From a virus: a DNA stretch of 64,000 bases. The stretch is from positions 3,346 to 67,345 of the IMG/VR virus record IMGVR_UViG_3300033412_000010, one strand, 5' to 3'. Within the stretch, counting starts at the first letter, position 1, and every line of letters starts with the position of its first letter. This document shows, piece by piece, positions 2,772 through 62,230 of this stretch. Below the pieces are notes generated by a model. The model was not told where the DNA came from, searched no databases, and was given only the letters and a program-made list of their open reading frames with translations. Made by a program: the position numbers and the translations under genes.

Positions 2772-2797
2772 TGATCCGAAAGTGCGTTTTGAGCGTT
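2772..2797 (+). promoter_or_regulatory. TGATCC-N16-CGTT motif (ECF-like promoter candidate)
   Basis: TGATCC 2772-2777, CGTT 2794-2797; 43 nt before ORF 2841. Confidence 0.65.
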
Positions 2798-2840
2798 ACG
2801 GATTCATTCGACGGTCGAAACTCCAATCGAAAGGGAAAAT

Positions 2841-3374
2841 GTGAAGATCACAATCACTCGGCGTTGGTCTGCGGAAGTTGTTTTTGAGGCGGAAGTCGAC
2901 ACTGAAGATCGACGAATCGGAATGGGTTTGGCGATCAAGTTGGCGCTGAGTCAGAAAATCAACCTGAGCGGCTCCAACCTGCGCGGCTCCAACCTGCGCG
3001 GCTCCGACCTGAGCGGCTCCGACCTGCGCGGCTCCAACCTGCAACCGATCAAGGATGATATATGGGCGATGTTGTGTTATGCGCCGCGGGAAGTCCCTGC
3101 GTTAATTGAAGCGTTGAAGGGCGGACGACTTATCAGAAAACCATTGAAAGGGTTCAATCGTGAAGAAATGGGAGACGATCGCGGACATTCCGTTGTCAGC
3201 TTGGTTCCGGTTCAAAACACGACCGAACAATCTGCATCCAATTCAGCAAATCAGTCTGCAATATGCGGGCACGCCGATGCCTGGACTTGCACTCAAAGCC
3301 GGGCCGGCGGTGAATATCGACGGTCAATGGTGGCGCCCGCAAGAAATGGAATCGGTGTTCGAAGTCTCGCTTGA
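2841..3374 (+). CDS. pentapeptide-repeat protein, probably 3'-truncated
   Basis: (N/D)L(S/R)GS repeats encoded by 15-nt units at 2961-3041; the C-terminal half reads out of frame through the next gene. Confidence 0.7.
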   Translation: MKITITRRWSAEVVFEAEVDTEDRRIGMGLAIKLALSQKINLSGSNLRGSNLRGSDLSGSDLRGSNLQPIKDDIWAMLCYAPREVPALIEALKGGRLIRKPLKGFNREEMGDDRGHSVVSLVPVQNTTEQSASNSANQSAICGHADAWTCTQSRAGGEYRRSMVAPARNGIGVRSLA

Positions 3375-3579
3375 TTGCGAGCACTGGACCGCATGTACTG
3401 GCGAGATCGGCGGCGGTGCCGACGTAGACCGTCTGGCCTCCTTCGTCGACAAGGGGCTGAATCAGGCACGACTGGCTTTTGATGAACAGCGGACCAGAAT
3501 CGACGGTTTGCAAAAGCAGATCGACGAGCTTTTGAAGTCTGCGAACGAGGCGAAGACGGCAGCCGGAAAGAAAACTTGA
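3160..3579 (+). CDS. hypothetical protein with C-terminal coiled coil
   Basis: 139-aa ORF, GTG start, protein-like composition. Confidence 0.65.
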   Translation: MKKWETIADIPLSAWFRFKTRPNNLHPIQQISLQYAGTPMPGLALKAGPAVNIDGQWWRPQEMESVFEVSLDCEHWTACTGEIGGGADVDRLASFVDKGLNQARLAFDEQRTRIDGLQKQIDELLKSANEAKTAAGKKT

Positions 3580-3603
3580 CGCCTGATTTTGAGGCGGTAT
3601 GAT
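3576..3603 (+). promoter_or_regulatory. sigma70/sigmaA-like promoter upstream of portal
   Basis: TTGACG-N16-TATGAT with GG before the -10 box. Confidence 0.55.
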
Positions 3604-3640
3604 CTGCCTCGGTGAGACGGTTGGAATCTGAGGACGCGCG

Positions 3641-3673
3641 GAAAGGCCGGGGGTGAAAATCTCCGGCCTTTTC
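3641..3673 (+). terminator. hairpin, intrinsic terminator-like
   Basis: AAAGGCCGG...CCGGCCTTT(TC) inverted repeat. Confidence 0.5.
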
Positions 3674-3729
3674 GTTTGACGCCATCGGACGTTATCCTGT
3701 TCGCAAATCCTTCAACGGAGTGCGAGCGA

Positions 3730-6483: not shown

Positions 6484-6524
6484 CCCGCTCAAGTCGCCTT
6501 TAGGCTTGGCGGGTATTTTCTTTT
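6484..6524 (+). terminator. intrinsic terminator after gpF
   Basis: CCCGC..CAAG...CTTG.GCGGG stem followed by TATTTTCTTTT. Confidence 0.5.
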
Positions 6525-6548
6525 GATCCGAACGGCTGTTCATGCGTT
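6524..6548 (+). promoter_or_regulatory. TGATCC-N15-CGTT motif upstream of sigma factor gene
   Basis: TGATCC 6524-6529, CGTT 6545-6548. Confidence 0.55.
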
Positions 6549-6654
6549 AAATGAGCAGTGACCATTGGTCGCTCGGCAGGCTCACGTTACTCGTCTGGAC
6601 AACGATCCTTGAGCCTGCCGTATTCTGTCACATTCTCAATTCCCTACTTCAATC

Positions 6655-7989
6655 ATGACCGCCGAATACCTTTCCCGTGAAGACGAACTGGCATTGATTG
6701 TTCGAGCCAAGACTGGCGACAAGGCCGCCATTGAGGCACTGCTTGATAATTTTGCAGGGTGTCTCCACAAAATGGCTGGAATCTGGCATCGAAAATACGT
6801 TTTCGGGCAATGTGAATACGAGGATTGCTTTCAGGCCGCATGCATGGGAGTGATGAAGGCCATTGACAAGTTCGACGTTGCATCAGGAAATGCACTGATG
6901 ACTTTGTCATATATTCTGATCCGGCAATCACTGCAGGAAATGCAGAAGACAATGGATGTCATAAGGCGTCCCCGTCATTCACGGCGACGAACGACATCGT
7001 TAAACGTTTCCGTCGAAGATGGAGCATCTGAACTACAAGACATTTGTGCCGTCGCTCCGCACGTGGATGTATCCAGTCGACTCACGAGGGAAGACGAGCA
7101 CGCCAAGGCAGAATCTCTTTTGCGATATTTGACTACCCGTGAACGCGCCATAATGCTGCTGCATTACGGCGGCTCAACTTTTGAGGAGATTGCGTCGCAA
7201 TTCGGAGTGACCAAACAGCGAATCCATCAAGTCATCAGCAAGTCACTGCATAAACTGAAGAAGATCGCGTATTCGCTTGGCATCACGGATGACGACGGCA
7301 GGTTAAGGCGATCTTCTACTTCGTGCCCGCACTGCCACGGAGACGACATAGAACGCATCTCAAATGATCAGCGCGAATTCCGCTGCAATGAGTGCGATAA
7401 ACAGTTTCTCCCAGCTTCATGTAAGCGGCCTCGTCGCATCAGGCTCGAAGAGAGCGTTTCCTCGGAAGGGTGCCCGAAATGCGGAAGCCTGGATATTGTT
7501 AAAAGAGGATTCGACCCAAGAGGCAAACAACGTATTCGATGCAAGAAATGCTGGTCATCATCAATCCCGTCTCAACTGCTGACGTTTGGTAATCACCGCA
7601 CGTACGATGATGTTGAACCATTCTTTTCGCAGAAACTCCATGACTATGAGATTTGCGAAATACTGAAAATGAATGCTCGTGACGTAGCTGCATTTCGCAG
7701 GGAGTACGAATCGTCTCATGGCGCTACGCTTTGTCCATGCGGGCGGAGAATGACTCACCGAGGCTTCTGCGAATACCGCCTCAACCGCAGTCCAAAATGC
7801 GTCAAGAAACGATTGCTTGCGATGACGATTGGGGACGGCCGCAAGTATCTTGAAGTTGTCGCCATGAAGAAAAGGAAAACCAAGAAGACGACTTCAGCGG
7901 TTGCATCCACGTTGGCATCGAAATCCACCGTCCTTTCTGGGGAGGCTCTGCGAGTCATGGCTTCCGTTATCGCTGCGTTTGCGAGGTGA
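6655..7989 (+). CDS. sigma-70 family RNA polymerase sigma factor fused to C-terminal zinc ribbons
   Basis: Region 2 EDCFQAACMGVMKAIDKFD; region 4 TFEEIASQFGVTKQRIHQVISKSLHKL; then CPHC..CNEC, CPKC..CKKC and CPCG..C motifs. Confidence 0.85.
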   Translation: MTAEYLSREDELALIVRAKTGDKAAIEALLDNFAGCLHKMAGIWHRKYVFGQCEYEDCFQAACMGVMKAIDKFDVASGNALMTLSYILIRQSLQEMQKTMDVIRRPRHSRRRTTSLNVSVEDGASELQDICAVAPHVDVSSRLTREDEHAKAESLLRYLTTRERAIMLLHYGGSTFEEIASQFGVTKQRIHQVISKSLHKLKKIAYSLGITDDDGRLRRSSTSCPHCHGDDIERISNDQREFRCNECDKQFLPASCKRPRRIRLEESVSSEGCPKCGSLDIVKRGFDPRGKQRIRCKKCWSSSIPSQLLTFGNHRTYDDVEPFFSQKLHDYEICEILKMNARDVAAFRREYESSHGATLCPCGRRMTHRGFCEYRLNRSPKCVKKRLLAMTIGDGRKYLEVVAMKKRKTKKTTSAVASTLASKSTVLSGEALRVMASVIAAFAR

Positions 7990-7992
7990 GTG

Positions 7993-8676
7993 ATGGCCAA
8001 GAAACCACAAAATCCGTGGACTCCAGAGGAAGATGATTTCATCAAAGAAAACATCGACACCCCTTGGACCATTGTCGCCGGACAACTTGGGAGAACCGTT
8101 TTTTCGGTGAGGTCGCGGTGCGCCAGAATTCGAGCAGTCAAGGCCACCGCGTCAAGGCTCATGGGGCACTCCGATGTGGAATTAAAGAGGCTGCATTCAT
8201 TCGGGATGTCCAATAAAGAAATCGCCGCTAAGCTTGATGTCACTGGCGAATGCATACGAAAGGGCCTGAGGAGACTTGGACTGCAATCGAATGAACGTGA
8301 CTTCTCGTCAGCCAATGGTATTCGCGCGGTGACCATGAAATCCGTCTACGGCGTTGAAAACGTCACTCAACTCAATGCTAAGAAACAGGACGAACTTGCG
8401 AAATCTCTTGGATGGCCATCAATTGGTGTGGCCTGCATTGAGATTCTGGAAATTCTCTATACGAATCCGCTCATGACGGCACTTCAACTTAATGCAATCC
8501 GAGGTACCGGAACGGCAGCGTATAGTCACTTGAAGCGACTTCAACGGCATGGGCTTGTGATCCAAAGTCCACGACTTTCCGTTGATGGATACAAGGCGAC
8601 TTGTGTTTACTCGTTATCCACTTCCGCGATTGAAATGAAACAGAAGTTTTTGAGGAACAGAAATGCAACGCAATGA
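7993..8676 (+). CDS. multi-HTH DNA-binding protein (Myb-like N-terminus, winged HTH C-terminus)
   Basis: WTPEEDDFIKEN...IVAGQLGRTVFSVRSR; GMSNKEIAAKLDVT; AYSHLKRLQRHGLV. Confidence 0.7.
   Translation: MAKKPQNPWTPEEDDFIKENIDTPWTIVAGQLGRTVFSVRSRCARIRAVKATASRLMGHSDVELKRLHSFGMSNKEIAAKLDVTGECIRKGLRRLGLQSNERDFSSANGIRAVTMKSVYGVENVTQLNAKKQDELAKSLGWPSIGVACIEILEILYTNPLMTALQLNAIRGTGTAAYSHLKRLQRHGLVIQSPRLSVDGYKATCVYSLSTSAIEMKQKFLRNRNATQ
8558..8583 (+). promoter_or_regulatory. TGATCC-N16-CGTT motif (intragenic)
   Basis: TGATCC 8558-8563, CGTT 8580-8583; 79 nt before ORF 8663. Confidence 0.6.
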
Positions 8677-8935
8677 AGTCATCATTCAAGTCACGAACCC
8701 CAACGCAGAGCGACTGCGAAAACTCGTCCAAGAGAAACTAACCGACGACCGTATGGGAAAGATCGTCGAGCAGTTAGCGAAGAAGGCGGAAGAAGGAAAC
8801 GTCAAGGCCCTGGATTACCTGCTGAACATCGGCGGATTCATGCCATCAGCACCGAAGACAATCACCGTCAACCAATACTATGCCGATGGCCGTATGGTTC
8901 AGCAGTTGACGGAAGAGGATGGAACACCAATTTAG
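8663..8935 (+). CDS. hypothetical protein (helical)
   Basis: 90-aa ORF; AKKAEEGNVKALDYLL loosely resembles small-terminase-like helices. Confidence 0.6.
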   Translation: MQRNEVIIQVTNPNAERLRKLVQEKLTDDRMGKIVEQLAKKAEEGNVKALDYLLNIGGFMPSAPKTITVNQYYADGRMVQQLTEEDGTPI

Positions 8936-10259: not shown

Positions 10260-10286
10260 CATTCACTCTTGCGGGAGACGAAAGTC

Positions 10287-10589
10287 ATGTCTTGGTCAGT
10301 GCGATTGATTGGAACGCCGGAAGCGGTCGCTAAGGCGTTGGAAGAGGAAGAGGCTAAACTGTCAGGGCAAAGCCTGATCGAGTTCAGGGACGCGAAGCCA
10401 TCGCTCCAGATGTTGATTATGCAGAACTTCGACAACGCGCCCGGCGCGAAACCGCAGTTGTTGAAGCTGACTGCAAGCGGAAGTGGATATACGAAACAGG
10501 TCAGCGGGCCAAGCGGAGGCACGCAGGTTGAGCAGGTCAATCGCAGTTGCAACGTGTCGTTGGAATCGTTGGGAGCGGTCCTGACATAG
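10287..10589 (+). CDS. hypothetical protein
   Basis: MSWSVRLIGTPEAV...; GGGAG RBS. Confidence 0.7.
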   Translation: MSWSVRLIGTPEAVAKALEEEEAKLSGQSLIEFRDAKPSLQMLIMQNFDNAPGAKPQLLKLTASGSGYTKQVSGPSGGTQVEQVNRSCNVSLESLGAVLT

Positions 10590-10616
10590 CGCTGGCGGGA
10601 ACTGGCGAGCAGATCG

Positions 10617-10650
10617 AAAAGACGTCGGGAAACTGGCGTCTTTTTTCTTT
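10617..10650 (+). terminator. intrinsic terminator
   Basis: AAAAGACG...CGTCTTTTTTCTTT. Confidence 0.6.
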
Positions 10651-10683
10651 TAAATAAAATGTACAAATCCGAACGGATTACTG

Positions 10684-10774
10684 TTGCACTGCCGAATGGT
10701 CGATGGTATCTTTGTCTTATCAATCGCGGACGTCGCGATTATCTGAAAACCCTGGACGACAGGAAGGCCGACAA
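10684..10774 (+). promoter_or_regulatory. sigmaA-like promoter plus conserved hairpin leader (copy A)
   Basis: TTGCAC-N17-TATCTT, then TCGCGGACGTCGCGA (10724-10738); paralogous to 37633-37719. Confidence 0.65.
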
Positions 10775-10993
10775 ATGGCAAGCAGTTTCATTCGGGTGAC
10801 GTATTGGCGTGGAACTCGGCAGTGTGAAGGCCGGGCGACGACTTATCGCGGTGCGATGCGAATTGCCGCCCGCAACCAGAACGCCTATGGCCCGCAGTTC
10901 TATGCCGCCGATGGCGAAAAACTATTGGACGACGGGAACGGTCTGATGCGCGAGAGCGTTGCCGACTCCGGCAAGCTGGTGTACGAGTTCTGA
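10775..10993 (+). CDS. small hypothetical protein
   Basis: MASSFIRVTYWRG...; own promoter and AGGAAG RBS. Confidence 0.7.
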   Translation: MASSFIRVTYWRGTRQCEGRATTYRGAMRIAARNQNAYGPQFYAADGEKLLDDGNGLMRESVADSGKLVYEF

Positions 10994-11251: not shown

Positions 11252-11467
11252 ACGCAGCATTACTCGTAATCCATCAGAAGGCCACAAATCATGGAAGCAA
11301 TCCGATACCGTCACAGAGTCAATCACGCCTGGTCCGTCGCCGTCACAGCGGGCCGCTTCGGTGCCGACTCTCAATTCACAGTCTCAGGTGAGGGGAATCC
11401 AATCTGCGAATCAGGCTTGCTGCTGATGTCGCTCTCGATCGCGCCGGACGGTTGGGAAGAAATAGTT

Positions 11468-11493
11468 TGATCCGCCGGCCAAAGTCTTTCGTT
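11468..11493 (+). promoter_or_regulatory. TGATCC-N16-CGTT motif
   Basis: TGATCC 11468-11473, CGTT 11490-11493; only 11 nt before ATG 11505. Confidence 0.6.
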
Positions 11494-12257: not shown

Positions 12258-12269
12258 ATGGAGTCGATC

Positions 12270-12992
12270 ATGTCTGAACTGTCGTTGACGCTTGAGCAAT
12301 GTGAAGCGGAAATTGAAAAGGCACATGCTGCGATGCTGCCGCATTTCGTCACGGTCGGGATTCATTTGATGACGATTCGTGACAACGATCTCTACAAAAA
12401 GACGCACGAAACGTTCGAGGAATACGTCAAGGAGCGATGGAACTTTTCGAGGTCTCATGCCTACAACTTCATCTCCGGCGCGAAAGTCGTCGCGAATTTG
12501 TCCACCACTGAAGACAAAAAGTCACTCAGTAAATTATCAAGGCGTCAAGCTCTGGAGATAGGAAAAACGTCTGACGATCCAAAAATACAAACTGAGGTTT
12601 TCGATACGGCCCTGACCGTCGCGCCGGTTGAAGAAATGAATCCGGGCGTGATCCGAAAGGCAGCGGACATCGTTAAGAGGCCGCGGACCGTGCAAGACAT
12701 GCTTGCCGAGAAGCGGGCCTTGAATCAGCCGACAGCGGAAACAGTGGCTCTGGATGAAGCGGTGGAAGCATGCGTGAAGACGCTGAACAAACTCCGTCGG
12801 CAATTGGGTGATGCTAAAATCGCTTTGGCAGAGAAGATCAAAGCGGCTGGCTCAAAGATGGCGACTATGCAAAAACGGCTTGAACAAAAGTTGAACGCAG
12901 TCAGTGAGGATTCGGTCGATCTAATCGCGGCTCTGGCAGAGTTTGAGAAGTCCTGGAAGTCGAACCGTAAACAGGTCGACGATCTTCAATAG
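12270..12992 (+). CDS. DUF3102-like phage protein with C-terminal coiled coil
   Basis: VGIHLMTIRDNDLY...TFEEYVKERWNFSRSHAYNFISGAKV motif. Confidence 0.65.
   Translation: MSELSLTLEQCEAEIEKAHAAMLPHFVTVGIHLMTIRDNDLYKKTHETFEEYVKERWNFSRSHAYNFISGAKVVANLSTTEDKKSLSKLSRRQALEIGKTSDDPKIQTEVFDTALTVAPVEEMNPGVIRKAADIVKRPRTVQDMLAEKRALNQPTAETVALDEAVEACVKTLNKLRRQLGDAKIALAEKIKAAGSKMATMQKRLEQKLNAVSEDSVDLIAALAEFEKSWKSNRKQVDDLQ
12649..12674 (+). promoter_or_regulatory. TGATCC-N16-CGTT motif (intragenic)
   Basis: TGATCC 12649-12654, CGTT 12671-12674. Confidence 0.55.
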
Positions 12993-13588: not shown

Positions 13589-13632
13589 AAACATCAATTT
13601 CAAATAATTCCTGAAAATTCAGGATAAGTGTC

Positions 13633-13660
13633 TTGCCCCATAATTCAAGTTCGCTATTAT
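13633..13660 (+). promoter_or_regulatory. sigmaA-like promoter
   Basis: TTGCCC-N16-TATTAT in an AT-rich gap. Confidence 0.5.
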
Positions 13661-13707
13661 ATCCCCTGTTGCGAGTTCACCAGACACGAAAAACGGGAGA
13701 CAGGGAA

Positions 13708-13863
13708 ATGACGATCAACCAGAACAAAATGATCGCGATCAAGACGGAAATGAGAAAAGCCGAACAGGCGACACTGGCCATCGGCGGCAGCGTGGAAGCC
13801 TTGCAGGCGACCGAATGGTATCGCGACCGGGTCGCTCAGATCGAAGCGATCTACGCGGAGTAA
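13708..13863 (+). CDS. small hypothetical protein (51 aa)
   Basis: MTINQNKMIAIKTEMRK...; own promoter, RBS and terminator. Confidence 0.65.
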   Translation: MTINQNKMIAIKTEMRKAEQATLAIGGSVEALQATEWYRDRVAQIEAIYAE

Positions 13864-13879
13864 TCCAAGACGATGATTC

Positions 13880-13915
13880 AAGGCCGGGGACGACAAACCC
13901 GGCCTTTGTTTATTT
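13880..13915 (+). terminator. intrinsic terminator
   Basis: AAGGCCGGG / CCCGGCCTT followed by TGTTTATTT. Confidence 0.65.
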
Positions 13916-13929
13916 AGGGAGCATGGCCG

Positions 13930-14145
13930 ATGTCGAAAAACAAAAAGACGCCGGGGAATTTGGTCACAAAGCAAATCCCATTTCCAGCGAGTTGGCTTGA
14001 GCGAATCGACAAGGCGCGTGCTGAAGGCGAGTCTTTTTCGGCATTCGTGCGAAGGTGCGTTGCGGCAAACATCGATACCGCAGGTCTTGAGGAAGTGCGA
14101 TGGGGCGGCCCAAGAGAATCAGCAGGCCGCCCGGCGAATAAGTGA
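13930..14145 (+). CDS. ribbon-helix-helix (CopG-like) DNA-binding protein
   Basis: TKQIPFPASWLERIDKARAEGESFSAFVRRCV beta-alpha-alpha pattern. Confidence 0.65.
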   Translation: MSKNKKTPGNLVTKQIPFPASWLERIDKARAEGESFSAFVRRCVAANIDTAGLEEVRWGGPRESAGRPANK

Positions 14146-14189
14146 CGTTTGATTGTGTTGATGGGTTTCACTTTTTTGAAAGCAGAACT

Positions 14190-15176
14190 ATGTCGAGAAA
14201 ACTTGGAAGGCGTGCTCCGAAGAAATCGCCAGCACTGCGGTTCAGCCAATTCTGGAGCGGAGCCGTGCCGGACCATCCGGACGCCGTTGACTATTTGGCG
14301 CGGTTGCAGAACTGGCAGATGCTCGGGAACAATGACTTTGGCGATTGCGTCGCCGTTGCCGCGGCGAATCTGCGGCGCCTGATCTCGTCTCAGTTGGGGC
14401 TCGAAGACTACCCAACGCAGGACGAAGTCTTCGCGCTCTATCGGACGCAGAACCCGAACTTTCAGCCGAACCCAAATCGGCCGGTCGAGGACAACGGCAT
14501 GGATATTCAAACCATGCTTGAATACTGGCACGGGAACGAATGGAGCGGCACAAAAGTCGTTGCGTTCGCCGCGGTCGATCCGACGAACCTTGCTGAACTG
14601 AAGGCGGCAATTGCGATCTTCGGCGGCGTTCTCCCTGGGGTGTTGGTGACGCAGGCGAACGATCAAGAGTTCAGCAACGGCCAGCCGTGGGACTTCGTGA
14701 AGCGGTCCAGGACGCTCGGCGGGCACTGCATTCTCGGCGGCGGGTATCAGTCGACGACATCGGGGGCGATGCGCTTCATCACGTGGGCGAAGGAAACGCA
14801 GTTCACGGAAGCGTTCATCGCGCATCAGTTTGAAGAATGCTGGATTCCGATTTTCCCCGAACATCTCGGGACGAAGTCGTTTCAGCAGGGCGTTGATTTG
14901 CTGGCGCTGGCGGCGGCGTATCGGGACTTGACAGGGAAGCCATTGCCTGTCCCAACGCCGGTTCCGGTGCCTGATCCTGTACCGGTTCCTTCGGGCGCAT
15001 GGGTGATCGAGTCACAGACTGATTCTCAAATCGTGCTCAACAGAATTCCGGCGCCGTCTGGAATGGGTGAGGAGTCCGTTCAGTGCGGGCTCTCGCCGAA
15101 CAGCGAATCGGCAGGCGTTCGGAATTATCCAGCGTTTCCGCGTGGCCGGGCCGGAGATGACTATCGGCGCTCGTGA
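14190..15176 (+). CDS. papain-like (C1-type) cysteine peptidase with Pro/Val linker
   Basis: MLGNNDFGDCVAVA (Cys), LGGHCILGGGY (His), FITWAKE; PVPTPVPVPDP linker. Confidence 0.7.
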   Translation: MSRKLGRRAPKKSPALRFSQFWSGAVPDHPDAVDYLARLQNWQMLGNNDFGDCVAVAAANLRRLISSQLGLEDYPTQDEVFALYRTQNPNFQPNPNRPVEDNGMDIQTMLEYWHGNEWSGTKVVAFAAVDPTNLAELKAAIAIFGGVLPGVLVTQANDQEFSNGQPWDFVKRSRTLGGHCILGGGYQSTTSGAMRFITWAKETQFTEAFIAHQFEECWIPIFPEHLGTKSFQQGVDLLALAAAYRDLTGKPLPVPTPVPVPDPVPVPSGAWVIESQTDSQIVLNRIPAPSGMGEESVQCGLSPNSESAGVRNYPAFPRGRAGDDYRRS

Positions 15177-38248: not shown

Positions 38249-38316
38249 AATGTTTCGAAACGTCGCGGGCTTTGGCCGTCAAGGCCCGCATTTCTTCTCA
38301 CGGACGGGAGGTTGTC

Positions 38317-42683: not shown

Positions 42684-42706
42684 TCCGACAGGCCGATTTT
42701 TCCGTT
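42681..42706 (+). promoter_or_regulatory. TGATCC-N16-CGTT motif
   Basis: Begins at the TGA stop of the upstream gene; CGTT 42703-42706. Confidence 0.7.
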
Positions 42707-44392: not shown

Positions 44393-44415
44393 TCCGATCA
44401 TGTCGGTCGGACGTT
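44390..44415 (+). promoter_or_regulatory. TGATCC-N16-CGTT motif
   Basis: Begins at the TGA stop of rusA; CGTT 44412-44415. Confidence 0.7.
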
Positions 44416-44476
44416 GAAGTCGATGTCTCAATCTAAGGACTTGCAAATGTGGCAAACGTTTTTGAGTTGGATCACG

Positions 44477-46962: not shown

Positions 46963-48256
46963 TTGGATGTTCGATTTCCAGCAGATCATGACGACATGGG
47001 CGATTCAAAAAGGACGTGCGCTGTTGATCGAGGAATGCGGACTCGGGAAGGGGCCGCAACAATTAGTCTTCTGTGAGAACGTCATCCGAAAAACGAACGG
47101 CAAATCGTTAATCATGGCTCCGCTGGCCGTGGCTCATCAACTCGTAACAGAGGCGGAAAAGTTCGGGATTGATGCGAAGTTGTCGCGCGACGGGAAACCG
47201 CACAAGAACATCACGATCGGAAACTACGAATCGATCCATAAGTTCGACGAAGCCGATTTCAATTGCGTGAGCGGCGACGAGATTTCCGCGGCGAAAGCGT
47301 TCGATGGGAAGCGCCGGAAACAGATCACGCGATTCATGTCGAAGATGCCATATCGACTCGGAGCGACGGCGACAGCAGCACCGAACGATTACATCGAACT
47401 CGGGACGATTTCAGAACTCCTGGGACACATGACGCAATCGGACATGCTCGGGACTTTCTTCAAGTCCAGCGATAAGAAACGGCACTCACTGTTCAAGGAA
47501 GGCGACTTTTGGAACAGGGCCAAGTATTTCTTCCGTGCGCATTCGGAAGATCCGTTTTGGAAGTGGGTTTGCTCGTGGGCGCGCGCGATCCGTTCTCCGA
47601 AAGACATCGGCTGTGACGATTCGCGATTCATCCTGCCGGAACTAACGATCACGCAGCATGTCGTTCCGACGCGGTTCAGGTTTCCAGGAGAATTGTTCGT
47701 CCGCGTTGCAGTGACGCTGGCAGAACAACGAGAGGAGCGAAAGCGGTCGCTTGAGGAACGCTGTCAAATGGTCGCGAAGTTGGTCGACCATAAGGAACCG
47801 GCGCTGGTCTGGTGTCAGTACAACCAAGAGGGCGAGCTACTCACCAAATTGATTCCTGGAGCGGTTGAGGTGGCCGGGCGGCATTCGGACGAAGAGAAGG
47901 CCGAACGCCTCAATGGCTTCGCAAAAGGCGAGTTCCGAGTTCTGGTGACGAAGCCGAAGATTGCCTGCTTCGGTCTGAACTATCAGCATTGCGGGCATCA
48001 CACTTTCTTTCCAAGTCATTCACATGAGCAGTGGCATCAATGTATCCGCAGGTCCTTGAGGTTCGGGCGCGTCGGTCCCGTTCGCTGTGATGTCATCGCG
48101 ACAGAAGGCGAAGCCGGAGTAACCGACAATCTGAAGTCGAAGCAGGTCAAGGCGGAAAAGATGTTCGACAAGTTGATTCGCCTGATGAATCACGGAGAAC
48201 ATCTGACAATTCCAGAAAACCATATTCAACCAATGGAGATCCCGGCATGGCTGTGA
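46877..48256 (+). CDS. SNF2/DEAD-like helicase
   Basis: CGLGKG, degenerate GDEIS Walker B, TATAAPND, TKPKIACFGLN, RRSLRFG. Confidence 0.85.
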   Translation: MSVSDYQKFLASKSQLATMDGFEPLWLPDWMFDFQQIMTTWAIQKGRALLIEECGLGKGPQQLVFCENVIRKTNGKSLIMAPLAVAHQLVTEAEKFGIDAKLSRDGKPHKNITIGNYESIHKFDEADFNCVSGDEISAAKAFDGKRRKQITRFMSKMPYRLGATATAAPNDYIELGTISELLGHMTQSDMLGTFFKSSDKKRHSLFKEGDFWNRAKYFFRAHSEDPFWKWVCSWARAIRSPKDIGCDDSRFILPELTITQHVVPTRFRFPGELFVRVAVTLAEQREERKRSLEERCQMVAKLVDHKEPALVWCQYNQEGELLTKLIPGAVEVAGRHSDEEKAERLNGFAKGEFRVLVTKPKIACFGLNYQHCGHHTFFPSHSHEQWHQCIRRSLRFGRVGPVRCDVIATEGEAGVTDNLKSKQVKAEKMFDKLIRLMNHGEHLTIPENHIQPMEIPAWL

Positions 48257-49266
48257 TAGCCCAAAGCATCAACGATCAACGAGCGATCTACAACGCCGAC
48301 TGCATGGAAGTCCTGCCTTCATTGAGATCGGATTCGATCGGCGTTTCTATTTACAGTCCTCCTTTCCCGGAAACATACGCTTATTCGAACGATCCGCGGG
48401 ATATGTCGAACTGCGCGACGTATGAGGAAGGGATCGCACAGTATCAGTTCATCGTGAACGAAATCTTTCGACTGACCAGACGGGGCCGCTTGACCTGCGT
48501 GCATTGCATGGATCTGAAGCGAGGCTCGTTCTTTCAACGGGACTTTCCAGGGGACATCATTCGCGCTCACGAAAAGGCCGGTTTCAATTTCGTTTGCCGT
48601 GTGACGATTTGGAAGGATCCGTGGCTCGTCGCGCGGCGAACTCGGATGAAGTCGCTCCGTCACAAAAACATCTGCGAAGATTCGTCGACAGTGCGCATCG
48701 GGCCGGCGGATTACGTTCTTGTGTTCAAGAAAGGCTGGCAGACGGATGTGAAGATCAAGCATCCGCTTGGATTGAAAACCTATGCTGGAGCGAGAGAGAT
48801 ACCGCCAGAACTGGTTCAGCAGTTCAAGAACTACGAAGGGGACCAACGAAAGAACTTCTTGAGTCATTGGATATGGCGGGCCTATGCTTCACCGGTCTGG
48901 ATGGACATTCGGACAGGGCGCCTGATGCCGTTCAATGAGTCGAAGGAAAGTGATGAGGAGCAGCACGTTTGTCCGCTTCAGTTGGATGTCATCGAACGGC
49001 TGCTGACGCTTTACAGCAATGAGGGGGATACGCTGCTGACGCCATTCGCGGGAGTCGGGAGCGAACCGTATATGGCGCTTCGAATGGGGCGTCCTGCGGT
49101 CGGAATCGAGTTGAAGCCAAGCTATTATCGGCAGATGCTCAAGAACCTGAAAAAGGTAAACGAACCGGAAGTCATCGCCGAAGAACCAATGCTGCCGGGC
49201 TTCGATGAGTTCGACGCTTGGGACGTCAATTGGGAAGATGATGAATCGGAAGTTGAAGCTCCATGA
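48247..49266 (+). CDS. amino-DNA methyltransferase (N4/N6 family, beta class)
   Basis: SIYSPPF motif IV, HVCPLQL, TPFAGVGSE motif I, GIELKPSY. Confidence 0.88.
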   Translation: MAVIAQSINDQRAIYNADCMEVLPSLRSDSIGVSIYSPPFPETYAYSNDPRDMSNCATYEEGIAQYQFIVNEIFRLTRRGRLTCVHCMDLKRGSFFQRDFPGDIIRAHEKAGFNFVCRVTIWKDPWLVARRTRMKSLRHKNICEDSSTVRIGPADYVLVFKKGWQTDVKIKHPLGLKTYAGAREIPPELVQQFKNYEGDQRKNFLSHWIWRAYASPVWMDIRTGRLMPFNESKESDEEQHVCPLQLDVIERLLTLYSNEGDTLLTPFAGVGSEPYMALRMGRPAVGIELKPSYYRQMLKNLKKVNEPEVIAEEPMLPGFDEFDAWDVNWEDDESEVEAP

Positions 49267-54405: not shown

Positions 54406-54431
54406 TGATCCGACGGCGGATGTCTTGCGTT
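54406..54431 (+). promoter_or_regulatory. TGATCC-N16-CGTT motif
   Basis: TGATCC 54406-54411, CGTT 54428-54431. Confidence 0.7.
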
Positions 54432-54512: not shown

Positions 54513-54782
54513 ATGAATGACAGGCATTCTCTCACCGACCACAGTTGGGTGATGATTTGGCTTGGAGTGACAGCCGTTGTTGCATTTGTGATTGGTCGCC
54601 TGACACACCATTCGCAGATCGCAGATGCCATACGGATTGTCGGATACTTGGTGTTCTGCTCTTGTCTACTTCCGCTGATTGCTGGCCTGAGTCGGCTGCA
54701 AAAGAGAATGGATGACAGGATAAGTCTGAACAAGAGCCGTCAGCAATTGCAAAACGCCAAGAACGAGAAGCACGATCGTTAG
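54513..54782 (+). CDS. two-TM small membrane protein
   Basis: Two hydrophobic helices; GGGGGTG RBS. Confidence 0.6.
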   Translation: MNDRHSLTDHSWVMIWLGVTAVVAFVIGRLTHHSQIADAIRIVGYLVFCSCLLPLIAGLSRLQKRMDDRISLNKSRQQLQNAKNEKHDR

Positions 54783-55184: not shown

Positions 55185-55251
55185 CGCTCAAAATCTCCTG
55201 TTGCCCGTCTGAACGCACGAAACCGGGTTTTGGATCATTCCATCATTCTTT

Positions 55252-55277
55252 TGATCCGAACGGACTGACGAAGCGTT
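55252..55277 (+). promoter_or_regulatory. TGATCC-N16-CGTT motif
   Basis: TGATCC 55252-55257, CGTT 55274-55277; precedes the structured region. Confidence 0.7.
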
Positions 55278-55282
55278 GACAG

Positions 55283-55645
55283 TCTCAGCGGTTGTGATAC
55301 GATCAGAACGTCGATTTGGCAATCGGCACAGATCACTACAACCGCAAAGTCCAATGGACTCGAAGTGGATTGAGCATGTTCGTAGTGGTCCGTGCTTGAT
55401 CCCGCCCGCCAAGGCCGAGTCCATTGGACTTTTCGCTTTGACGGCTCGCCAATTGACCGCATGAAACTGGGCATGGTCAATGAGCGGTGCAAGTCCGACG
55501 CCCGACGCCTATGCGTGACTGAGGCTGAGAGACCATCTGCGGAAGCCGGGATGAAGCCGTCATCTGCTTTCTTGCAGCACAGATCCCATACTATCTTCCG
55601 GCTCATGAAGTCGTGGGATAGTAGGGAAACTGTCGCTGCAAAAAC
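55283..55645 (+). ncRNA. candidate large structured non-coding RNA
   Basis: Four consecutive multi-stem domains including a perfect 17-bp stem (55346-55362 / 55416-55432); no convincing ORF; family unknown; strand inferred from the upstream motif. Confidence 0.5.
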
Positions 55646-56226: not shown

Positions 56227-56252
56227 TGATCCAATACGGCTGATCGTGCGTT
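56227..56252 (+). promoter_or_regulatory. TGATCC-N16-CGTT motif
   Basis: TGATCC 56227-56232, CGTT 56249-56252. Confidence 0.7.
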
Positions 56253-56297
56253 ATTCGGCCGTGTCTCGTGTTCTCAATGCTTCAGGGGGATTTGCAA

Positions 56298-56573
56298 ATG
56301 GAAAAAGAAGTTGCGGTCATTTCGTCATCGTCGGAAGGCTATCGGATTCGGATCAGCGCGGAACAGCATTGGTTTCCAAACGGAATCGCATTGGCTGAAG
56401 CGCATGCGGTGCTGCTGATTGAGTTCGCCGCTCTTAAGGCAAGGATCAACGATTTTGACGAACTCGTGGATTCCTACGCAGATAGCAGTCCGATCAGCGA
56501 TTGGCAAAAGGCATATACCAACCTGATCGGTGAGGTCAACGCCATTGTCGGCAAAAGCGAACGAATGTTTTGA
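56298..56573 (+). CDS. hypothetical protein
   Basis: MEKEVAVISS...; GGGGGA RBS. Confidence 0.65.
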   Translation: MEKEVAVISSSSEGYRIRISAEQHWFPNGIALAEAHAVLLIEFAALKARINDFDELVDSYADSSPISDWQKAYTNLIGEVNAIVGKSERMF

Positions 56574-57252: not shown

Positions 57253-57929
57253 TCCTGATCGACGGTAAAGAGTGGCGCCCGATCGCGTTTGTCGACGAAT
57301 TGGTTCAAAGGATTCTGGTTGACGAAAAAACGGAAACGCGGCGGATTGCTCGAGTCTTGCCAAACCGACCGTTTCCAAAGTCGCCATACGGAAAGCCTGG
57401 CGATCGGCTTTGGGTCCGGGAATCGTTCGCGACGTTCCAACTGGTCGAACAGTCGGCGGCCGGGGTTCCGTGGGGCTTGGCTTCGTCGAAGATCGAAGAC
57501 GCGGACTTGGTTGTCTTCCGGGATGGGTCGATCAAATGGCGTCCGGGAAAGACGGTCGAAACGCGCGTCCATGTCCAAGTCGCGCGGTTGGCTTCTGCGA
57601 TGGTATCGGGTTACACATTCCGGCCACCGATGCACCTGCCATTTTGGGCGCATCGAATTGACCTGGAAGTCAAAACGGTTCTGGTCGAACAGTTGCAGCA
57701 GATCACGGAAGAGGCGGCGATTGCGGAAGGCTTCCAGCTTCGGGGGGACAAATATGATCGACCGATTTATGCGCGGGAGCAATTTCGGAACAAATGGAAC
57801 GACATCAACGGAGGCCGGAAAGACGCGCAGGGGCGGCCGGTGAAATGGGACGACAATCCGACGGTTTGGGTTGTGACTTTCGAACGGATCAAATCGCGAG
57901 ACGCTAAAGATTCCGCGGAGAAGAAGTGA
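57249..57929 (+). CDS. conserved phage protein (ASCH/PUA-like)
   Basis: KTETRR, PYGKPGDRLWVRES, QITEEAAIAEG, WDDNPTVWVVTFERI. Confidence 0.78.
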   Translation: MILIDGKEWRPIAFVDELVQRILVDEKTETRRIARVLPNRPFPKSPYGKPGDRLWVRESFATFQLVEQSAAGVPWGLASSKIEDADLVVFRDGSIKWRPGKTVETRVHVQVARLASAMVSGYTFRPPMHLPFWAHRIDLEVKTVLVEQLQQITEEAAIAEGFQLRGDKYDRPIYAREQFRNKWNDINGGRKDAQGRPVKWDDNPTVWVVTFERIKSRDAKDSAEKK

Positions 57930-57952
57930 TCCGATCGAAGATCCATTCCGTT
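57927..57952 (+). promoter_or_regulatory. TGATCC-N16-CGTT motif
   Basis: Begins at the TGA stop of the upstream gene; CGTT 57949-57952. Confidence 0.7.
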
Positions 57953-58039: not shown

Positions 58040-59710
58040 ATGGCGAAGAAAGCATCACGTCGAGAAATGGCTGAAGCAGAAACCGAAGGCGAAGACGGGC
58101 AGTACAATCTGCTGATTCAAAACATTGGGCCGATTGAACTGGCTCGATTCCCATTTCAGCCGGGCCGAATCACTGTTGCCTATGGTTCGAACGGCGCCGG
58201 TAAGTCGGAATCTCAGGCGGCATTTAACGCTGTAGCCGGTCTTGGAACGGACGGCGTCACCGTGCGCGACGGTTGCGAAGCAGGCCGAATCTCCGGCTTC
58301 GGCCGTGAGGTCAAGTTCACGCTGAAGCGATGCACGCCGACCGGGGAAATCGGTGTCTATGTCATCGAGGAAGGATTCTCGCTGGCTCGATTCGTGCGGC
58401 CTGGCTTCAAGGATCCTGCGGCGAACGACCGGCAGCGGCTGAAAGACTTAGCGTCAGTGCTTGGAATCGAGATCCCGCAGGAAAAGGTCTGGCAACTCGT
58501 CGGGGGCTTCGAGGAAGAGCGACGGAAGATCGAAGAATCAGACGAGCCGATCGACAAAAAGGCCGAAGCGCTTACAGTAATCAAGGCCAAGGAGCGCAAG
58601 GTCTATAATGCGATCGTCTCCGAAAAGACGACCAAGGCAAAGGATCCTGCCGAATATGTCGCTGCTCTGAAAGCTGACTGCGACCGCGTTGCGCTCGAAA
58701 ACGAAAAGACGGTCCTGATCCTCAAATCAGAAGCGAACGGACTTGAAGACACTCTGCCGAAGTTTCCCGAAGGAACCGTCACGGATGCCGAAGTCCTATC
58801 GGCCAAACTCGCTGACGCAGTCCAGGCGAAGCGCGAACTGGAGCGAAGGAAAGAGACTGCCGACGATGCCGAACGGCTCGCAAAAGAAGCGGAACGCATC
58901 ATGGCAGCCGGTCAGGGACAAACGCCGGAAGCGGCAGAACAATTGATCGTCGCTGCCAAGGCGGAGATCGACGAATCTGAAAAGCTGATCCTTGAAGCGG
59001 AAGCGATACTCAATCGGGAAAGAACTCGGTTGGAAGGGCTGAAGCGACGGCTTGCTGATGCCGAGAAAGCGAAGCAGGAAGCGATCGGCAGACAACAGGA
59101 GATCCAGGGAGCCCGTGCCGCGTTGCAGCAGAAAATCAATCGACCGTCCGATACAGAATGGTCGACCGCGGAATCAGCAATCAAGGCGGCTGAGGAAGCT
59201 TTGGCGCTCGGCTCGAAGATCCGTGAAGCCGACAGAACTCGGCAGATAATCGCAGACAAGCGTGCGGAAGCGGACGAGATCGCAGCCGAAGCTGAAGCGT
59301 TGAGAGCCGCAGCGAAAGGCGTCGTCGGTTTGCTGGTCGAGCCAATCAATGAGCTTCACTGCGGGATTGAGATCGATGAAGCGAATCGTTTGGTATTCAC
59401 GGAGCATCCGGTTCGCGGCCGATGCTATGTTGAAGAGCTAAGTTCCGGGGAGGCGTGGACATTGGTTTTGAGACTGCTCGTAAAAGTCGTCGGAAATGAC
59501 ATCCCGGCAATCGTGTCGATCGAGCAAAGCGCGCTCGAAGGTCTTGACGGTATTGCTCTCAAAATGTTCGTCGATGAAGTTGCGAAAACGAAGTTGATGC
59601 CGTTTGTGGCAAAGGCAACGGCGAAAGAACTTGAGAACGGCGAACTGGTCAGAGAACCTGTTTTCGGAAAGCTCGTCGATCATTGGCGGGATTTGGCGCG
59701 GTCCGTGTGA
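58040..59710 (+). CDS. SMC/RecF-like AAA ATPase with long coiled coil
   Basis: IQNIGPI, GSNGAGKS Walker A, coiled coil, LSSGEA signature, IEQ Walker-B-like. Confidence 0.78.
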   Translation: MAKKASRREMAEAETEGEDGQYNLLIQNIGPIELARFPFQPGRITVAYGSNGAGKSESQAAFNAVAGLGTDGVTVRDGCEAGRISGFGREVKFTLKRCTPTGEIGVYVIEEGFSLARFVRPGFKDPAANDRQRLKDLASVLGIEIPQEKVWQLVGGFEEERRKIEESDEPIDKKAEALTVIKAKERKVYNAIVSEKTTKAKDPAEYVAALKADCDRVALENEKTVLILKSEANGLEDTLPKFPEGTVTDAEVLSAKLADAVQAKRELERRKETADDAERLAKEAERIMAAGQGQTPEAAEQLIVAAKAEIDESEKLILEAEAILNRERTRLEGLKRRLADAEKAKQEAIGRQQEIQGARAALQQKINRPSDTEWSTAESAIKAAEEALALGSKIREADRTRQIIADKRAEADEIAAEAEALRAAAKGVVGLLVEPINELHCGIEIDEANRLVFTEHPVRGRCYVEELSSGEAWTLVLRLLVKVVGNDIPAIVSIEQSALEGLDGIALKMFVDEVAKTKLMPFVAKATAKELENGELVREPVFGKLVDHWRDLARSV

Positions 59711-59776
59711 ACTGCTCCGCAATTGGGTGATCGTCTGTCTGAGAAATCTTGAACCCGGTTCAGTGAAGGTGTTCCA

Positions 59777-60091
59777 ATGAAAAAGCAAAGCGTATCGAAG
59801 ATCCTGGAACTGATCCTGGAAGAAGTCGAAGCCGGCCGGCTGCCGGGTCCAGAATTGATTCGGCAAGGCCGGTCATCGTTGCGAGCGGTAACGAGGTCGT
59901 TGAAGGCGGCGACGGACGCGGCGGCGGCAAGTGGCAAGTCAGGCAGGAAGCCGACGTTCGACCGGGAAGCAATCAAGGTCTATCTGCGGAAGCATCAGGA
60001 CGCGCCAGTCCAGGAATCGGCCGACAAGTTCGGTTGTTCGACGACGTTGATTTCAATTCTGCGGCAGGAAATCAAAAAGGAAGCGAACTGA
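59777..60091 (+). CDS. HTH DNA-binding protein
   Basis: PVQESADKFGCSTTLISILR. Confidence 0.6.
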   Translation: MKKQSVSKILELILEEVEAGRLPGPELIRQGRSSLRAVTRSLKAATDAAAASGKSGRKPTFDREAIKVYLRKHQDAPVQESADKFGCSTTLISILRQEIKKEAN

Positions 60092-60092
60092 A

Positions 60093-60326
60093 ATGGCGCA
60101 TCGTGTGAAAGTCGAATGCCGGTTCGTCATCGAAGTTGAAATCGACATGCCGATCGAGGAACTTGAGTTCTATGTTGAAGAGAACAGTTGCCCTGGAACT
60201 GGCAGAGTTGGTTCTGCATTGGAAGAGCACATGGCGGCGCACGAAGCGGCATCAACCTGTTGGGCCTGCGCTCTCCAGGGTGAAAACAAGATACTTGAAA
60301 TCGATGGCAAGCCGGTGAGCGAATGA
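60093..60326 (+). CDS. small hypothetical protein
   Basis: 77 aa with CPG...CWAC. Confidence 0.6.
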   Translation: MAHRVKVECRFVIEVEIDMPIEELEFYVEENSCPGTGRVGSALEEHMAAHEAASTCWACALQGENKILEIDGKPVSE

Positions 60327-61201
60327 GATTCGGTTCTGTCTGTTCTGGAATAGAAGCAGCCTCTCAGGCGTTCTGTCCGCTCGGTTGGAAGGCGGCATGG
60401 TTCTCAGAGATCGAACCGTTCGCGTGCGCCGTGCTGAAGTATCGGCATCCGACCGTGAAGAATCTCGGCGACATGACTAAGCTTCCGAAACGGATCCTAT
60501 CAGGTGAAGTCGAAGCTCCAGACGTTCTGTGCGGGGGTTGTCCCTGTCAAAGCTTCTCTTTTGCTGGCCTTGGCGAATCTCTCGATAATGCGCGCGGTCA
60601 ACTCACTCTGATCTTTTGCGAGATAGCCGATGCAATTGACGCTGTTCGACAACGAGCCGGATTGCCTGCCTGCATCGTCTTCTGGGAAAACGTCGAAGGG
60701 GTCTTGTCCACAAGAGACAACGCATTCGGATGCTTCCTTGGAAAGCTCGGTGGAGACAATCAGCCGATCGAACCGGGGCCGAAGCCGGAAGCAGGGAAAT
60801 CAAGTCAGTTCTGGCGATGGGCAAAGCCTGACGAATCTTGCCCGGTCTGGCGTCATGTTCCGAAGTGGCCAGTCGCAGGTCACGTTATGGGGCCGACAAG
60901 ATCAATCGCGTGGCGAGTTCTCAATGCTGAATTTTTCGGTCTGGCACAACGGCGCAACCGTGTGTTCGTTGTTGGAAGTGCTCGAAAGTGGTTCGATCCC
61001 GTCAAGATACTTCTTGAGTCCGAAGGCGTGCGCCGGGATTCTCCGCCGTGCAGAGAAAAGGGGGAAGTCGTTGCCGGAACCCTTGAGAGTCGCGCTCGAG
61101 GCGGTGGCTTTCCGGGGACAGACGCGGCATGCAGCGGAGCATTACAGCCAGTTAGAGTTCATCCCCGAAGTCTCTTCGCCCCTGATGGCGCAAGCGAATG
61201 A
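60323..61201 (+). CDS. C5-cytosine DNA methyltransferase, alpha polypeptide (motifs I-VIII)
   Basis: FGSVCSGIEA (I), GCPCQSFS (IV), ENVEG (VI), QRRNRVFVV (VIII); lacks IX/X. Confidence 0.88.
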   Translation: MRFGSVCSGIEAASQAFCPLGWKAAWFSEIEPFACAVLKYRHPTVKNLGDMTKLPKRILSGEVEAPDVLCGGCPCQSFSFAGLGESLDNARGQLTLIFCEIADAIDAVRQRAGLPACIVFWENVEGVLSTRDNAFGCFLGKLGGDNQPIEPGPKPEAGKSSQFWRWAKPDESCPVWRHVPKWPVAGHVMGPTRSIAWRVLNAEFFGLAQRRNRVFVVGSARKWFDPVKILLESEGVRRDSPPCREKGEVVAGTLESRARGGGFPGTDAACSGALQPVRVHPRSLFAPDGASE

Positions 61202-62177
61202 AACGGGCGGCGATCGTCCGCCTGGCTCAACAGTCGATACAGTTGGGCAACCAGTTGCCCAAGCGTTGCGCGGTGAAGGGTTTGACGCCAGTGAAGATGG
61301 AACCGGGCGTGGCACGCCCATCGTCCCCGTTGGATTCAGAGTTCACGGCGAAAACAGCGTTGCAATGAACAATCTGGCAGGAACAGCAAACGTTGCCGAT
61401 CAGGTCGAATCAGTCAGAGCTTTGGATTCAAAAGGCGGTTACTCGGCGAGTCAGTGCGGAAACATCGTCATGCAGCCGATCGCAGTGAATGCACGACAAG
61501 ACCCCGATTCATGGTCGGGCCGAATCGGCCCGCTGGACTCGCTTGGTTCGACGCATGCGATATGTCAGGCGATACCGTTCGATACAACTCAGATTATGAG
61601 TCCTGGAAATTGGAGCGTTCCCAAGGCCGGGGACGCATGCCATCCGTTGGCGGCGACTGCTCATATTCCAGCAATCGCCTTCAGGGCATGCGGACAAGAT
61701 GGCTTTAAAGCAGGTGAACAATCTCCGCCGTTATGCGCGAGTGATGGCGGCGGAACCGTGCCAACTGTTGCGTATCAGTGTCAAGGTTCAAACGTCGGCG
61801 AGATGGGAGCATTGAGGGCCGGGAACGGAAATGAGAGCGGCGGTGTTCCATTCGTGTTTCAAACACGTTGCAGCAGAAACGACAGAGGATTGCCAAGCGA
61901 AGTCGTTCCGGCGCTCACTTCCTGCGAAGGCGGGAGTCATGCAGACACGAAGCCTCATGTTGCAGGCGGCGGTTATGTGGTCCGAAGATTACTTCCAATT
62001 GAGTGCGAAAGATTGATGGGATTTCCAGACGGGTGGACGCTCGTGAAATATCGCGGCAAGCCGGCAACCGACGGACCTCGCTACAAAGCAATCGGGAATA
62101 GCTGGGCGATTCCATGCGTGCGTTGGATCGGCGAACGAATCGACGCCTTCGTGAAAGGCATGGAAGATTCCGTTTGA
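60630..62177 (+). CDS. C5-cytosine DNA methyltransferase, overlapping beta polypeptide (TRD, motifs IX and X)
   Basis: YFLSPKACAGILRRAEKRGK segment, repeated TRD-like units, VRRLLPIECERLMGFPDGWT (IX), YKAIGNS (X). Confidence 0.82.
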   Translation: MQLTLFDNEPDCLPASSSGKTSKGSCPQETTHSDASLESSVETISRSNRGRSRKQGNQVSSGDGQSLTNLARSGVMFRSGQSQVTLWGRQDQSRGEFSMLNFSVWHNGATVCSLLEVLESGSIPSRYFLSPKACAGILRRAEKRGKSLPEPLRVALEAVAFRGQTRHAAEHYSQLEFIPEVSSPLMAQANETGGDRPPGSTVDTVGQPVAQALRGEGFDASEDGTGRGTPIVPVGFRVHGENSVAMNNLAGTANVADQVESVRALDSKGGYSASQCGNIVMQPIAVNARQDPDSWSGRIGPLDSLGSTHAICQAIPFDTTQIMSPGNWSVPKAGDACHPLAATAHIPAIAFRACGQDGFKAGEQSPPLCASDGGGTVPTVAYQCQGSNVGEMGALRAGNGNESGGVPFVFQTRCSRNDRGLPSEVVPALTSCEGGSHADTKPHVAGGGYVVRRLLPIECERLMGFPDGWTLVKYRGKPATDGPRYKAIGNSWAIPCVRWIGERIDAFVKGMEDSV

Positions 62178-62205
62178 AATCTTCGGAATTATCCGAACGA
62201 ATTTG

Positions 62206-62230
62206 TGATCCGTCTGCGAAAACGTGCGTT
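62206..62230 (+). promoter_or_regulatory. TGATCC-N15-CGTT motif
   Basis: TGATCC 62206-62211, CGTT 62227-62230; 50 nt before ATG 62281. Confidence 0.6.

Follow-up and report, generated by a model that had tools for sequence, protein, structure and literature searches.

A phage genome assembled from soil metagenomes (IMG/VR record IMGVR_UViG_3300033412_000010, a complete genome in the form of a 68,716-bp contig with a 127-bp terminal repeat) carries many copies of a two-box motif, TGATCC followed by CGTT after 16 or sometimes 15 nucleotides (nt). We analyzed bases 3346–67345 of this contig, a stretch of 64,000 nt referred to here as the window, in whose positions all phage coordinates are given unless another contig is named. 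We propose, with a probability of about 0.64, that these sites are phage promoters copied from the envelope-stress promoter of the host lineage, of the type used by extracytoplasmic function (ECF) sigma factors. A host stress sigma, and not the sigma factor encoded by the phage, probably switches on the early, replication and accessory genes. We infer the promoter nature of the sites, the identity of the reading sigma and the timing of expression from what was observed directly, namely the statistics, placement and orientation of the motif, the conservation of its boxes among phages, its excess and target genes in the host order, and the adjacency of an ECF sigma gene.

The + strand of the window contains 12 copies of TGATCC-N16-CGTT and two of TGATCC-N15-CGTT (6524 and 62206). 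An earlier note on this DNA had listed these 14 copies, 12 with N16 and two with N15, and every coordinate was correct. Absent from its list was an N16 copy on the − strand (55237–55212), which precedes the sole leftward small gene. With this copy the motif set numbers 15 (14 on + and one on −); the pattern matches number 16 when an N15 match at 24655 on the − strand, probably due to chance, is counted. Searching both strands for TGATCC-N15–17-CGTT gave these 16 matches compared to 0.78 expected from shuffled sequences, with a shuffle maximum of 4. The same note had counted roughly 45 TGATCC sites on the + strand (46 in our count) and had reckoned with less than one chance match, in agreement with the shuffles; it had also said that equal frequency in shuffled sequence or on the − strand would speak against the motif, and the numbers found are 0.78 in shuffles and 14 + strand against 2 − strand matches. 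The histogram of TGATCC-to-CGTT spacings from 5 to 30 nt has a single peak at 16 (12 sites), all other spacings being represented by 0–2 sites. Both boxes are invariant in all 15 copies, while the spacer is free. The extended consensus reads (T/G)TGATCC(G/A)A-N14-CGTT, as 12 of 13 copies have G or A at position 7 and 11 of 13 have A at position 8. A −35 box, a non-conserved spacer of 16 ± 1 bp and a −10 box with CGT make up the ECF-type layout, and the peak at N16 only, the free spacer and the invariant boxes bear out its recognition in the earlier note. The 4.7 kb of phage genome beyond the window contain no additional copy.

The gene order starts with the large terminase, the portal and a Mu-F-like head protein, followed by the sigma factor gene (6655–7989). 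A 25-kb structural block without motif copies comes next, and then genes for an exonuclease, RecT, a replication initiator, RusA, a helicase and methyltransferases, a divergent control region (55.2 kb) and DnaN. Intergenic sequence accounts for 9.5% of the total, yet 11 of the 14 + strand copies are intergenic (binomial p = 1.6e-9), and the motif is the commonest intergenic dyad of the window. All 15 copies point at the next gene. The distance from the end of CGTT to the start codon is 11–114 nt in 14 of them, the exception being the copy at 12649, which lies within a gene. The genes that follow are recombination and replication genes, small accessory genes, the divergent pair and the sigma gene. 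The placement described previously, on the coding strand, mostly close before start codons, at accessory islands and replication genes and outside the capsid–tail block, is thereby confirmed, the + strand between 12.7 and 38.1 kb being free of copies. Four copies had been said to begin on the TGA stop of the preceding gene; those four hold (39713, 42681, 44390 and 57927), although the count was too low, as the copy at 11468 is a fifth. The copies, and the match outside the set, are as follows.

2772–2797, + strand: N16 copy, 43 nt before the pentapeptide-repeat gene 2841–3374, in the gap behind the large terminase gene.
6524–6548, + strand: N15 copy, 106 nt before the phage sigma gene.
8558–8583, + strand: N16 copy within the 3' end of gene 7993–8676, 79 nt before gene 8663–8935.
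11468–11493, + strand: N16 copy, starting on the TGA stop of gene 11291–11470.
12649–12674, + strand: N16 copy inside gene 12258–12992, the last before the structural block.
38157–38182, + strand: N16 copy in the 3' end of gene 37742–38248, 62 nt before gene 38245–38577, the first after the structural block.
39713–39738, + strand: N16 copy on the TGA stop of the PD-(D/E)XK exonuclease gene, 50 nt before RecT (39789–40931).
42681–42706, + strand: N16 copy on a TGA stop, 43 nt before gene 42750–43808.
44390–44415, + strand: N16 copy on the TGA stop of the RusA-like gene, 31 nt before gene 44447–45073.
54406–54431, + strand: N16 copy, 81 nt before gene 54513–54782.
55212–55237, − strand: N16 copy, 27 nt before the leftward gene 55184–54984, which encodes 66 amino acids.
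55252–55277, + strand: N16 copy, the rightward half of the divergent pair.
56227–56252, + strand: N16 copy, 24 nt before gene 56277–56573.
57927–57952, + strand: N16 copy on a TGA stop, 87 nt before gene 58040–59710, which encodes 556 amino acids.
62206–62230, + strand: N15 copy, 32 nt before gene 62263–62739, which precedes dnaN.
24631–24655, − strand: N15 match outside the set, antisense within a long structural gene.

The copy at 11468 leaves just 11 nt between CGTT and the ATG at 11505, so that the mRNA would have almost no leader. The copy at 6524 is flanked by a terminator-like hairpin before it (6489–6509) and a conserved hairpin after it (6575–6619). The copies at 55237 and 55252 form a back-to-back divergent pair, and the latter is followed in tandem by a sigma-70-like TTGACA-N16-TACGAT (55275–55302).

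The phage DnaN is 53–55% identical to DnaN proteins of Planctomycetaceae metagenome-assembled genomes and of Schlesneria paludicola. On account of this identity we place the host, probably, in the Planctomycetales. The motif is native to Planctomycetales genomes. In 61 evenly drawn genomes of this order we found 1912 sites with N16 compared to 1235 with N19, a control spacing in the same codon phase; N16 was the more frequent of the two in 53 of the 61, the median difference being 11 sites (Wilcoxon p = 9e-9), and five genomes had 53–75 sites against 18–39. In the genome G462, 13 of the first 30 motif sites are intergenic, and the genes that follow encode a short PspA, SPFH/Band_7, TPM, Zn_peptidase_2, DUF1294 and DUF6263 proteins and several membrane proteins. 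Host intergenic sites also carry the extension seen in the phage, TGATCC(G/A)A. Within 400 nt upstream of short pspA genes from Planctomycetales, the exact motif is present in 10 of 17 cases and a form with one mismatch in the −35 box (e.g. TGAACC) in a further 5 of 17, compared to 0 of 13 for long pspA genes. Among 23 Zn-peptidase genes, 7 are preceded by the exact motif and 4 by a one-mismatch form. The short pspA and Zn-peptidase genes of Schlesneria, one of the named bacterial relatives by DnaN, likewise carry the motif.

Twelve of the 17 short-pspA loci, and the Schlesneria locus too, have an ECF sigma gene immediately before the promoter and pspA. These pspA-linked sigmas are 45–80% identical between genomes. 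Against the Protein Data Bank (PDB), the best match of the host ECF sigma is B. subtilis SigW (5wuq, 73.6 bits), whereas R. sphaeroides RpoE (2q1z) scores 31.9 bits; against NCBIfam, the SigW model PRK09641 ranks second with 102.9 bits, under its equivalog cut-off of 209. The conserved module runs from the SigW-like ECF sigma gene via TGATCC-N16-CGTT to a short pspA of about 190–200 codons (loci L186 from G462, L176 from Schlesneria, and L227–L243). In G462, the one locus read in detail, the sigma stop codon is 63 nt from the pspA promoter with no anti-sigma gene between. By analogy with E. coli, where PspA regulates PspF, PspA might regulate the adjoining ECF sigma. The earlier note had offered a host ECF sigma and a phage-encoded factor as alternatives, and the N16 excess in Planctomycetales, the motif before pspA and other membrane-stress genes and the adjoining SigW-like gene favor the former. 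A Planctomycete-specific sigma subfamily (TIGR02984) was considered as reader and rejected, since the TIGR02984 genes of Schlesneria have no consistent upstream motif.

B. subtilis sigma-W, which governs PspA-type and flotillin-type genes and has been linked to phage defence (PMC12563154), offers the nearest comparison. Its promoters (TGAAAC-N16-CGTA) have the same bipartite N16 layout and a CGT −10 box, and both regulons, that of sigma-W and that of the host, include PspA-type and SPFH/flotillin-type membrane-protection genes. The phage motif differs in having TGATCC in place of TGAAAC, in a −10 box ending in T and in its location on a phage genome. The sigma-W arrangement of an anti-sigma gene after the sigma gene and an autoregulated promoter was not seen in G462, at one locus. 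The E. coli Psp system, in which, according to PMC3128695, a stress circuit that can be set off by membrane damage linked to phages has PspA as its foremost target, uses sigma-54 and PspF, whereas the pspA module of Planctomycetales has an ECF sigma.

Phages are known to rely on a sigma or polymerase of their own or on the housekeeping sigma of the host, and ECF promoters themselves are well known. We know of no phage that drives its own genes via the E. coli Psp circuit. Our literature search, which was shallow, found no description of a phage family with a main promoter class that copies the promoter of a host ECF stress regulon.

The motif recurs in related phages. L144, with a DnaN 78% identical to that of the window, has 7 + and 1 − copies in 20 kb; L181/L182, with a DnaN 56% identical, has 8 + and 1 − copies in 31 kb. 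The more distant L005, which has only a 35%-identical sigma in common with the window, has 3 copies in 10 kb; each lies between genes in the right orientation, and one stands 13 nt before its own sigma gene. The back-to-back pair is kept in L144 and L181. Orthologues of the 2772 copy lie behind TerL in L144 (18792) and L182 (8002), those of the 57927 copy in L144 (4830) and L181 (6823), and that of the 62206 copy in L144 (9827), where the spacing is N15 as well. When the copies at matching positions (five sets) were compared pairwise, 78 of 78 comparisons showed the same −35 box, while spacers and upstream flanks were 44% identical, which indicates selection on the two boxes and their distance. 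Near-identical strains of the window phage retain motif copies. The strain variant L001, 99.4% identical elsewhere, differs at 13618–14510 (window 10260–10782), where it lacks gene 10287–10589 and has a swapped cassette of different small genes with an N15 motif copy of its own; accessory cassettes appear to travel together with the promoter. Searches of IMG/VR with the sigma, TerL and two alignments yielded no useful close relatives. A scan of viral contigs with TGATCCGA-N14-CGTTGA gave, among the matches listed, second copies at chance level and no motif-rich contig.

The sigma factor of the phage itself is another candidate for the role of reader.

6655–7989, + strand: phage sigma gene, product P0001 of 444 amino acids, with sigma regions 2 and 4 in the first ~205 residues and zinc ribbons at residues 223–301.

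It is the only sigma gene in the phage genome, and one motif copy precedes it, at 6524, as had been stated. P0001 belongs to the phage sigma family phrog_351 (E = 7e-31), and its best PDB matches are SigA, RpoS, RpoD, SigF and FliA, so that by sequence it is not an ECF sigma. Together with a sigma-70-like region 4.2 helix in the family, this upholds the previous impression of an RpoD-like region 4. A library-wide search found a handful of relatives with a similar build. In their alignment, the helix (T/S)RERxRQ is kept in most members and the canonical melting residues TYATWW are kept in P0003 and P0007. P0001 itself has TKQRIHQ in region 4.2 and TLSYIL in region 2.3, compared to SRERARQ and TYAIFW in P0002 of L005. 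The DNA-reading residues therefore differ between two phages with an identical motif. Conversely, P0004–P0006 have similar helices and their contigs no motif copy, and in all, four contigs with sigmas of this family have none. As judged from these comparisons, the motif is not tracked by the sigma family. In L182, the slot after the Mu-F-like gene that corresponds to the sigma position in the window contains other genes. Identity between P0001 or other phage sigmas and the host ECF sigma is 23–28% and confined to region 4. No P0001 homologue at E ≤ 1e-15, prophages included, was found in 401 Planctomycetota genomes; the sigmas retrieved when species genomes were scanned were all generic ones of the Firmicute/Mollicute kind, and an NCBIfam scan of ten short sigma homologues returned group-1/3-like assignments only.

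These data bear on two explanations that give the phage sigma a part in reading the motif. According to one, which we think improbable, the host ECF sigma fires first and the phage sigma, having evolved the same specificity, takes over and amplifies, so that the phage is freed from host control of the ECF sigma. The motif copy before the sigma gene in two phages suits such a handover, as does a genome with one sigma and one strongly conserved dyad, and the absence of a second motif would be accounted for. P0001 also lacks the canonical −10 readers (TLSYIL in place of TYATWW) and has K-Q..H in place of R-E..R in the −35 helix, pointing to altered specificity, and sigma-70 geometry fits the motif when it is written TTGATC-N17-CGTTnn. 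Yet the reading residues of P0002 are different with the motif unchanged, P0001 is related to the host ECF sigma at the family level only, and the syntenic slot of L182 has no sigma although that phage has 9 motif copies. According to the other explanation, the phage sigma alone reads the motif in a classic middle/late scheme and the identity with host sites is mimicry or coincidence. This is appreciably harder to accept. It would pair one orphan sigma with one orphan motif, and boxes perfectly invariant in 15 copies are typical of phage-specific promoters; the motif also co-occurs with the sigma family in L005 and, more weakly, in the contig L011. The sigma gene would, however, need its own product for transcription, no other promoter for it having been found, and the motif, missing from the structural block, stands before genes of replication and recombination. 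Moreover, the same motif and extension are native to host-order genomes, with a P0001 homologue in 0 of 401 Planctomycetota genomes, and neither the reading residues nor the presence of a family sigma covaries with the motif. The window phage resembles phages with sigma cascades (SPO1 gp28 and gp33/34, phiEco32 gp36, PHROG 351) in encoding a reduced-size sigma-70-family protein and in its near-identical promoter set. In those cascades the promoters are phage-specific and distinct from those of the host, whereas here they match the promoter of a host regulon, and the reading residues of P0001 do not follow them.

A cellular source of a different kind is suggested by the literature, in which TGATCC-N16-CGTA is the published consensus for ECF11 (RpoE/ChrR) promoters of P. 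syringae and Shewanella (PMC5507510, PMC4336711). The phage motif agrees with the ECF11 promoters of R. sphaeroides, P. syringae (PSPTO_1043) and Shewanella (RpoE2) in the −35 hexamer, the spacing and CGT. An independent origin of all three in a phage sigma is unlikely, which indicates a cellular ECF sigma. That this sigma is a host ECF11 protein responding to singlet oxygen is nevertheless very doubtful. Two Planctomycetota genomes do have a variant, TGATCC-N16-CGTC, some 45 nt ahead of a gene for a small ChrR-like cupin, but in 301 Planctomycetota genomes no protein attains the cut-off of the ChrR family (TIGR02451), and Schlesneria has no match at all. The motif-adjacent host sigma is far closer in score to SigW than to R. 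sphaeroides RpoE, the host-order regulon consists of membrane-stress genes and not of photolyase, oxidative-stress or singlet-oxygen repair genes, and all 15 phage copies have T instead of A as the last base of the −10 box. We rejected ChrR/ECF11 as reader on the absence of ChrR matches at the cut-off in these genomes and on sigma similarity. Least credible of all is that the sites are not promoters and serve as operators for a DNA-binding regulator or as signals linked to GATC methylation. TGATCC contains GATC, the phage has two DNA methyltransferases, and three copies fall within coding sequence. Two short invariant boxes at a fixed 16 bp with a free spacer, not palindromic, strictly co-oriented with the next gene and found in the same layout before host genes adjoining an ECF sigma all argue otherwise.

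Several observations weigh against a host stress sigma as the reader. The SigW-like ECF sigma is the putative reader by gene adjacency only, and the 680 nt before its gene in G462 are free of motif copies. Schlesneria has no genome-wide N16 excess (47 sites against a mean of 42). A single phage sigma with a motif copy before its gene in two phages resembles classic autoregulation, and the window yielded no second conserved motif as a possible promoter of the phage sigma's own; sigma-70-like sites as a class are no more frequent there than in shuffles. The lack of a sigma homologue in L181/L182 applies to the part read, 31 of 71.6 kb. Finally, the sequencing runs that contain the phage are all soil metagenome DNA and none is RNA.

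In the mechanism that we favor, the 15 copies would act as ECF-type promoters with a −35 box TGATCC, a spacer of 16 (sometimes 15) bp and a −10 box CGTT, derived from the promoter of an envelope/membrane-stress regulon of Planctomycetales (short PspA, SPFH/Band-7, TPM and Zn-peptidase genes). Their most likely reader would be host RNA polymerase with the conserved SigW-like ECF sigma encoded beside the promoter–pspA unit. The phage recombination, replication and accessory genes, the divergent regulatory pair and the phage's own sigma gene would then come under a host membrane-stress sigma. P0001, a two-domain sigma derived from groups 1/3, would serve a later promoter class, perhaps the sigma-70-like sites before portal (3576), structural (13633) and tail-accessory (~31826) genes. 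We put forward only tentatively the further step that infection itself is the trigger, with membrane perturbation at DNA entry freeing the PspA-linked SigW-like sigma, the phage family being wired to this alarm and the phage sigma taking over the late genes. The 'phage-shock' response of the host would in that case be the ignition switch of the phage. If the favored mechanism as a whole is correct, phage expression is tied to the membrane-stress state of the host, and a testable explanation is at hand for phage development that depends on stress or is set off by infection, in a phylum that has received little study. It would also define a conserved sigma–promoter–pspA module and its regulon in Planctomycetales, and supply portable, well-defined promoters for Planctomycete genetics.

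Sigma-70-like sites occur at 3576–3603, ~10700, 13633–13660, ~31826, ~41060 and 55275–55302, in forms such as TTGACG-N16-TATGAT and TTGCCC-N16-TATTAT, with two containing TGGTATCTT. They lie in gaps without the main motif, before portal, structural, tail-accessory and replication-initiator genes, and may belong to the class served by the phage sigma or to a host housekeeping class.

The sigma gene and the multi-helix-turn-helix gene that follows it (6655–8676) have an own-phage codon-usage score far below that of their neighbors, which suggests recent acquisition. The hairpin in the sigma-gene leader (6575–6619) has a counterpart in the distant phage L005 (~3300–3345, − strand), with an identical 21-nt loop core (GTTACTCGTCTGGACAACGAT) and a stem of 10–11 bp that is wholly different in sequence with its pairing kept, a compensatory change. 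It matched no Rfam family, nor did a Rfam scan of the window match any; a probe with the loop gave no viral match, and an 18-nt loop core was found in 11 metagenome contigs in unrelated contexts. In L005 a palindrome, GGTGGCCTCATGAGGCCACC, recurs at gene boundaries at no fewer than 4 sites (e.g. near 470, 3385, 5450 and 7335) and may be a terminator or operator.

The −35 box contains GATC, and the phage encodes methyltransferases of the N6/N4 and C5 types (genes 48247–49266 and 60630–62177); methylation of GATC could modulate promoter use. An in-frame ATG at 12699, 24 nt after the copy at 12649, makes possible a C-terminal product of 97 amino acids (12699–12992) nested in gene 12258–12992. Two similar leaders 27 kb apart (~10700–10760 and ~37670–37730) contain the hairpins ATCGCGGACGTCGCGAT and GTCGCGGACGTCGCGAC, each before a small gene.

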